Of a stretch of DNA of 64,000 bases, positions 21,379 to 22,000 are shown in pieces. Source of the stretch: Escherichia coli (GTDB taxonomy: Bacteria; Pseudomonadota; Gammaproteobacteria; Enterobacterales; Enterobacteriaceae). Where the stretch lies: the NCBI RefSeq assembly GCF_003790525.1, contig NZ_CP033635.1. The stretch is one strand, 5' to 3'. The translations under genes were made by a program, and so were the position numbers. Below the pieces are notes generated by a model. It worked only from the letters and a program-made list of their open reading frames with translations, searched no databases and was not told the DNA's origin. Within the stretch, counting starts at the first letter, position 1. Each line of letters opens with the position of its first letter.

Positions 21379-21862
21379 AGTTAATCACTTCACTGTGGAA
21401 TATGAGGAAATATTATTTTTTTTGCGCTTCGTAATTAATGGTTATAAGGTCGGCCAGAAACCTTTCTAATGCAAGCGATGACGTTTTTTTATGTGTCTGA
21501 ATTTGCACTCTGTCACAATTCCAAATCTTTATTAATGACTCACCTAAAACGACGCTGATCCAGCGTGAATGCTGGGTTGTACGGTATTTTCCTTATGTTC
21601 ATCAGTTTCATTTAAGCAAGGGTTTCTTCTTTATCCCTGATGAAAGTGCCATCTAAAAAGATGATCTTAATAAATCTATTAAGAATGAGATGGAGCACAC
21701 TTGATATTTTACTTATGAAACTGTTTCACTCCTTTACTTAATTTATAGAGTTACCTTCCGCTTTTTGAAAATACGCAACGGCCATTTTTTGCACTTAGAT
21801 ACAGATTTTCTGCGCTGTATGGCATTGATTTGCTGCTAATCCTGTGGTTTGCACTAGCTTTA

Positions 21863-21880
21863 AGTGGTCGAGATCACATT
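21863..21880. promoter_or_regulatory. candidate CRP-binding site in the malT-malP divergent region
   Basis: aaGTGGTcgagaTCACAtt resembles TGTGA-N6-TCACA; both mal promoters are known to be CRP-dependent. Confidence 0.3.
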
Positions 21881-21884
21881 TCCT

Positions 21885-21935
21885 TGCTCATCCCCGCAAC
21901 TCCTCCCTGCCTAATCCCCCGCAGGATGAGGAAGG
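21885..21935 (+). promoter_or_regulatory. malPQ promoter region with MalT-box hexamers
   Basis: GGATGA at 21924-21929, its reverse complement TCATCC at 21888-21893, and TCCTCC (reverse complement of GGAGGA) at 21901-21906, 70-110 nt upstream of the malP ATG. Confidence 0.5.
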
Positions 21936-22000
21936 TCAACATCGAGCCTGGCAAACTAGCGATAACGTTGTGTTGAAAATCTAAGAAAAGTGGAACTCCT

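Follow-up and report, generated by a model that had tools for sequence, protein, structure and literature searches.

The malT-malPQ control region of Escherichia coli: the classical CRP site at the malT promoter and a conserved, putative second CRP box upstream of malP

Our results revealed that the 622-bp intergenic region between malT and malP (21379-22000) in the window, i.e. the whole 64-kb stretch of Escherichia coli DNA that was analysed, is with very little doubt the canonical E. coli malA control region, in which two independent promoters stand back to back with an AT-rich spacer between them. The first-pass annotation, made from the sequence, had described a divergent malT/malPQ control region of about 620 bp as consistent with the known regulation by MalT and CRP and as not novel. 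The extent and the lack of novelty were rightly recognised, for the region is already known as the textbook malT-malPQ control region. However, the TGTGA-N6-TCACA-like motif which was flagged there as consistent with the known CRP dependence is not the characterised CRP site. The catalogued site lies at 21502-21517, at -70.5 of the malT promoter, and it had not been listed. The main value of this analysis lies in reassigning the classical CRP site to the right motif. The flagged motif itself, judged from its sequence and conservation, looks like a genuine, conserved CRP box, and the strong evolutionary support for this malP-proximal box, which the standard model ignores, appears to be the only novelty that remains. 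The genes on both sides of the region were as follows.

18673-21378, minus strand: malT coding sequence, an ORF of 901 aa for the maltose-regulon activator; annotated as malT in E. coli 2014C-3075 and K-12
22001-24394, plus strand: malP, an ORF of 797 aa; annotated as malP in 2014C-3075 and K-12 MG1655
24404-26488, plus strand: malQ, an ORF of 694 aa (malPQ together 22001-26488); annotated as malQ in 2014C-3075 and K-12

The segment 21300-22100 was 100% identical to E. coli 2014C-3075 and was matched in 5,423 of the 5,426 complete E. coli genomes, each time between malT and malP. Pairwise alignment of the intergenic region (21379-22000) with K-12 MG1655 gave 98% identity; the differences were one 11-bp indel and a dozen substitutions, and the core motifs were all spared. 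When 29 genera were compared by phylogenetic footprinting, the conserved blocks were exactly the promoter elements described here, lying within otherwise scrambled DNA, and every one of these elements is conserved across Enterobacteriaceae. The RefSeq annotation of K-12 holds no feature between malT and malP, and an Rfam scan of 20900-22500 for RNA families returned only a sub-threshold chance match to snoR28 (E = 0.5). A generic scan for sigma-70 promoters and terminators gave matches at chance level and missed both of the weak, activator-dependent promoters. Start points of transcription and the binding of proteins in this region are given below as predictions from the sequence; the predicted start points of the malT and malPQ promoters lie about 525 bp apart.

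The elements of the malT promoter and leader were located as follows.

21502-21517, minus strand: classical CRP site of the malT promoter, TGTGACAGAGTGCAAA, centre -70.5; aligned to the RegulonDB site
21469-21474, minus strand: malT -35 element TTGCAT, three of six positions matching, 17-bp spacer (as in PMC10882989)
21446-21451, minus strand: malT -10 element GACCTT, two of six positions matching the consensus, with A-11 and T-7 kept (as in PMC10882989)
21441-21446, minus strand: alternative malT -10 element TATAAC, 5 bp downstream of the -10 element (as in PMC10882989)
21416-21439, minus strand: Mlc operator block ATTAATTACGAAGCGCAAAAAAAA, malT +1 to +24, near-invariant in 29 genera
21379-21439, minus strand: malT 5' leader, about 61 nt, its start deduced from the CRP site at -70.5
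about 21384-21398, minus strand: malT leader block CACAGTGAAGTGA, a few bases before the ATG, nearly invariant in 29 genera

The CRP site differed by one spacer base from the malT site in RegulonDB (AATTGTGACACAGTGCAAATTC, activator, -70.5). It was conserved in all 28 other genera and scored 9.6 bits with the CRP matrix described below, which ranked it 16th among the 63,985 positions in the window. The position -70.5 is stated in an earlier study of this promoter (PMC10882989), and the malT start point (+1) was set at 21439 by placing the CRP site at that distance. This choice put three descriptions of the same study, namely those of the -10, the -35 and the alternative -10 element, exactly in register. 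The sequence around the -35 element, CTTGCA(A/T)T, was kept in all genera compared. With the CRP box at -70.5 and these three elements in register, the malT promoter would belong to class I, and the poor match of TTGCAT (3/6) and GACCTT (2/6) to the consensus points to a weak core. cAMP-CRP at 21502-21517 would then switch on this weak promoter as a class I activator that recruits RNA polymerase, and repression would come from Mlc at the invariant block spanning +1 to +24. Both roles are established for the K-12 orthologue and are presumed for this strain. Compared with the K-12 malT promoter, which is of class I with CRP at -70.5 and the Mlc operator at the start point, the CRP box, the -35, -10 and alternative -10 elements and the leader were the same. 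Two differences were seen: a single base had changed in the part of the CRP-box spacer that CRP does not contact (TGTGACAGAG here, TGTGACACAG in K-12), and the 11-bp segment further upstream (21577-21587) is deleted in K-12. The Mlc operator reportedly occupies malT +1 to +23 (Decker et al. 1998). The operator is separable from the core promoter, as the Mlc site was removed when a malT promoter reporter was truncated (PMC10882989). In the leader, the block CACAGTGAAGTGA was conserved despite the lack of a canonical Shine-Dalgarno sequence. Presumably this conservation is tied to the known unusual initiation of malT translation, which is stimulated by H-NS and StpA.

On the malP side, the following elements were recognised.

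21886-21895, minus strand: distal MalT box GGGGATGAGC, hexamer GGATGA at 21888-21893, centre -73.5; conserved
21899-21908, minus strand: middle MalT box AGGGAGGAGT, hexamer GGAGGA at 21901-21906, centre -60.5; conserved
21922-21931, plus strand: proximal MalT box CAGGATGAGG, hexamer GGATGA at 21924-21929, centre -37.5
21952-21957, plus strand: predicted malP -10 element CAAACT, preceded by TGG (TGG-CAAACT, 21949-21957)
21910-21919, minus strand: fourth MalT-box-like decamer CCTAATCCCC (reverse complement GGGGATTAGG), nine of ten positions matching the consensus, centre about -49.5

The first-pass annotation had reported GGATGA and GGAGGA hexamers in both orientations at 70-110 nt upstream of malP. 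Three such hexamers were present, 72-113 nt before the malP ATG. Under the refuting condition of the first-pass annotation, namely motif positions at odds with the reference, these MalT boxes agree with the published consensus and position rule, and the flagged CRP motif does not coincide with the CRP site catalogued for this region. The published MalT consensus is GGGGA(T/G)GAGG; the proximal box faces the gene and covers part of the -35 region, its centre being at -37.5 or -38.5 and its 3' end at about -35. In our region the proximal hexamer GGATGA (21924-21929) lay 22 bp upstream of CAAACT, with the start point deduced rather than mapped. Two further boxes were found upstream of it, both on the minus strand and hence opposite to the proximal box; they form a direct repeat with 13 bp from centre to centre and 3 bp between the decamers. 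This direct-repeat motif was reportedly defined by Vidal-Ingigliardi in 1991. The whole array at -37.5, -60.5 and -73.5 is the canonical three-site layout of the malP promoter.

Single GGAKGA hexamers occurred at chance level in the window (51 found, 45 expected). Nowhere in the 64 kb except at the malP promoter did three hexamers fall within 45 bp, though 8.6% of the windows shuffled by mononucleotides also contained at least one such cluster. The decamer GGGGAKGAGG had four matches with up to two mismatches within 21886-21931; when no more than one mismatch was allowed, six matches remained in the whole window and two of them fell in this segment. All three MalT boxes were conserved in 28 other enterobacterial genera; besides Escherichia, they were kept, for example, in Salmonella, Citrobacter, Klebsiella and Enterobacter, and also in Kluyvera, Kosakonia, Buttiauxella, Cedecea and others. 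The proximal box was kept as GGA(T/G)GAGGA in all genera compared, and the -10 region, GGCA(A/C)ACTA, was near-invariant. Placing the proximal box at -37.5 puts the predicted malP start point at about 21964, with a 37-nt leader.

The malP promoter has no usable -35 element and would be turned on by MalT that has been activated by maltotriose and ATP. MalT is expected to bind cooperatively, oligomerising on the proximal box and on the inverted direct repeat (-60.5 and -73.5), and from the three boxes it would recruit the polymerase. Such an action of MalT is established for the K-12 orthologue and is expected in this strain. The region was orthologous to the K-12 malP promoter characterised by Raibaud, Richet, Danot and colleagues: it was identical from -92 (21872) through the malP ATG, with the same proximal box at -37.5 and, at -60.5 and -73.5, the same pair of inverted boxes in direct repeat. 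There was no difference of substance; the one noted was C for T at 21869, in the spacer of the upstream CRP-like box. Between the middle and the proximal box, the CTAATCC of the fourth decamer equalled the three canonical MalT boxes in its conservation across genera, and even its non-consensus T was conserved. Together with the proximal box it forms an inverted pair, TAATCC-N6-GGATGA, similar to the MalT motif of Actinoplanes (TCATCC-N5-GGATGA). This decamer is not known as one of the three canonical sites of the malP promoter. Two small ORFs that run over the promoter (21830-21976 and 21844-21984) were considered as genes and rejected: the conserved blocks have the size of transcription-factor sites, and in about half of the genera the stretch that separates the CRP box from the distal MalT box has a 1-bp indel, which would shift the frame.

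The TGTGA-N6-TCACA-like motif that the first-pass annotation had placed at 21863-21880 was indeed present, in the following position.

21863-21878 (21860-21881 as a 22-mer), no strand assigned: second CRP-like box AGTGGTCGAGATCACA, centre about -93.5 of the malP promoter

The box reads AGTGG-TCGAGA-TCACA, with two mismatches to TGTGA-N6-TCACA. Its centre falls at 21870.5, which is some 431 bp upstream of the predicted malT start point and at -93.5 from that of malP; as the latter is deduced, the position could be -94.5. The box adjoins the distal MalT box and stands at -92.5 in those genera with the 1-bp deletion. It might be supposed that 21863-21878 resembles a CRP site by chance and has no function, the sole CRP input being at the malT promoter. 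In the window, matches to TGTGA-N6-TCACA with up to two mismatches were indeed not above chance frequency (23 found, 26 expected). Moreover, malPQ is treated as only indirectly CRP-dependent, and malP is missing from the lists of known CRP targets. Because mismatch counts were uninformative both for the CRP motif and for single hexamers, a matrix scan, the cluster test given above and phylogenetic footprinting were used instead. The CRP matrix was built from 150 SELEX-chip boxes in Table S3 of Shimada 2011. The second box scored 12.6 bits, the fourth highest value among the 63,985 positions in the window, which exceeds the median of the training boxes (11.15) and also the score of the proven malT site, contrary to what a chance resemblance would suggest. 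The matrix also recovered the catalogued CRP boxes between yhgE and pck, at 42434 and 42537, an internal positive control.

42434-42449 and 42537-42552: CRP boxes between yhgE and pck, CGTGATTCCTGTCACG and TGTGAGTGGAATCGCA, both listed in Table S3 of Shimada 2011

Ranks 1 and 3 in the window were held by 62215-62230 (AGTGAAGAAAATCAAA) and 45077-45092 (GGTGATGGTGATCACC).

For the conservation analysis, 80 loci from other Enterobacteriaceae species were obtained through MalP; 79 of them could be scored and 77 sites were extracted. The orthologous position of the second box reached at least 9 bits in 76 of the 79 genomes, versus 2% of background 45-bp windows. Its distance to the proximal MalT hexamer was always 55 or 56 bp, once an overlapping GGAGGAGGA match had been corrected for; in Siccibacter the box was lost. 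All 77 of these sites (100%) carried G5, G7, GATCACA and the TT that flanks it, and 97% carried T6, while positions 9-12 occurred in 26 different four-nucleotide combinations. The DNA directly upstream of the box was scrambled across genera. The pattern is that of purifying selection on the half-sites of the box and not on its spacer, and conserved half-sites with a free spacer and scrambled upstream DNA are the signature expected of a CRP-type protein site. Were the box neutral, it would have been scrambled like its own spacer and like the DNA about 10 bp upstream of it, and it would not have kept invariant half-sites around 26 different cores and a constant distance to the MalT boxes. We therefore consider a chance resemblance very improbable.

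The same alignment bears on whether the conserved element is bound by CRP at all, or rather by another protein, by an upstream extension of the MalT complex, or through an alpha-CTD or UP-like contact. The left half, AGTGG, was persistently non-consensus, with A4 in 96% and G8 in 87% of the genomes. The right half was conserved past the CRP core, as GATCACA(Y)TT, and the element directly adjoins the distal MalT box. These features would suit a non-CRP element. However, two conserved half-sites of 5-7 bp around a free 4-bp core, with G5, G7 and TCACA, make up a CRP signature, and the extended right half is that of the 22-bp CRP consensus GATCACATTT. The element is also unlike GGA(T/G)GA, the hexamer of MalT. 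The FNR half-site is TTGAT-N4-ATCAA. This does not fit the element, and its unconserved centre argues against a LacI-type operator. Furthermore, the spacer DNA between malT and malP was recovered in the CRP SELEX-chip. Hence, a binder other than CRP seems unlikely to us, although less so than a chance resemblance.

Part of the evidence for CRP comes from earlier genome-wide work. Table S3 of Shimada 2011 lists the second box, in its K-12 form AGTGGTTGAGATCACA (3.55063 Mb), as a CRP box, and places the malT box (3.55098 Mb) under the same SELEX-chip peak, malPQ<>malT, for which the database target is given as malT only. That peak covers both boxes, which are about 350 bp apart, so the bound box is not separable within it. 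Among the known CRP targets of Shimada 2011, malP is absent, and its RegulonDB table has only the -70.5 site of malT. The assignment of the whole peak to malT would agree with a box at 21863-21878 that serves malT and not malPQ, either at long range by looping or through a second malT promoter upstream. However, the box lies hundreds of base pairs upstream of the malT start, the intervening DNA is unconserved and varies widely in length, and no conserved promoter-like block facing malT was seen near the box. The distance to the MalT boxes of malP, in contrast, is fixed. A role of the box in malT expression can therefore hardly be credited.

With moderate confidence, we favour the reading that the flagged motif is a real second CRP box which probably gives malPQ a modest direct input from cAMP-CRP. 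Such an input at the malP promoter would add to the indirect one through malT. CRP at -93.5 could act by a contact with alpha-CTD or by bending the DNA and thereby stabilising the MalT nucleoprotein complex. A more specific version, in which the direct input through the -93.5 box has been kept deliberately sub-optimal (AGTGG) across Enterobacteriaceae and helps to assemble or bend the MalT-RNA polymerase complex, is more tentative, and we give it a little less than an even chance. The position of the box is a typical one, since CRP motifs are concentrated genome-wide at three positions, -41.5, -61.5 and -93.5 (Latif et al. 2018). The promoters with CRP at -93.5 and a second factor, called 'class III' in that study, resemble the malP promoter in the position of the CRP box and in having a second activator between CRP and RNA polymerase; for malP, the function of the box is putative. 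In the supplementary lists of Latif 2018, malP does not occur, and published CRP ChIP-exo data sets come from cells grown on glycerol, fructose or glucose. A genome-scale transcriptome study of 2018 took malPQ to respond to cAMP indirectly, by way of MalT. In the accessible literature we found neither a footprint of the second CRP box nor a test of it by mutation. In the work of Chapon in 1982, malPQ expression reportedly was CRP-independent once malT had been uncoupled from CRP, so that no direct CRP input was needed.

The divergent malE and malK promoters, which are co-activated by MalT and CRP, are like the malP promoter in that MalT and CRP boxes share the upstream region. However, they have three CRP sites between the MalT sites, and these are required, whereas the malP promoter has a single box upstream of all MalT sites and the classical work on it found no CRP requirement. 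An architectural role of CRP alongside MalT has its precedent in the malE/malK pair, as reported by Richet, Vidal-Ingigliardi and Raibaud in 1991. The second box is strongly conserved and stands at the canonical -93.5 from the malP start, and its sole record is in a supplementary table. Should the box prove functional, the view of how catabolite control works in the maltose regulon, with malPQ answering CRP only through MalT, would need revision, and the box would provide a simple natural case of CRP upstream of an array for MalT, an activator of the STAND family.

The DNA between the two promoters was of a different kind.

about 21530-21855, no strand: central spacer between the promoters, AT-rich (26-45% GC in 100-bp windows), poorly conserved

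No k-mer shared across the genera was found in the central spacer, and neither was a hidden conserved element, small gene or motif. Two islands (21703-21730 and 21755-21768) were considered as hidden elements and rejected, since they consist of AT-rich words that certain groups of related genera have in common. The spacer measured 64-85 bp in Enterobacter sp. Ag1 and in Buttiauxella and reached about 350 bp elsewhere; in most genera its length fell between 64 and 427 bp. As the spacer is AT-rich, poorly conserved and variable in length, it is dispensable, and the two promoters are independent modules. Within it, a perfect odd palindrome, TGAAAC-T-GTTTCA (21716-21728), resembles Cra/FruR half-sites with one extra central base; it was only loosely conserved (AGWAAYTATTTC in related genera) and is therefore probably not a site. 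Upstream of the malT CRP site, on the minus strand, a terminator-like hairpin, ACGCTG-GAT-CAGCGT, is followed by a T-rich run (21552-21566). E. albertii and E. whittamii retain the stem but differ in the loop; outside Escherichia the hairpin was not conserved. The 11-bp segment at 21577-21587 (GTTGTACGGTA) was present here, in E. albertii and in E. whittamii, and absent from K-12 and most of the E. coli listed. From this distribution, K-12 appears to have lost about one helical turn of DNA from the dispensable spacer.

The largest change of the spacer was an insertion of about 1.8 kb in Trabulsiella, where malT and malP are about 2.4 kb apart. In Trabulsiella odontotermitis (locus L055, 418-2192; also L057), the insert carries three ORFs on the malT strand, which encode an Hcp protein (PF05638), a 292-aa protein without a Pfam match and a DUF1240 protein. 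Such an arrangement looks like an orphan type VI secretion islet of Hcp, effector and immunity genes. Despite the insert, the CRP box and the MalT boxes on the malP side were retained.
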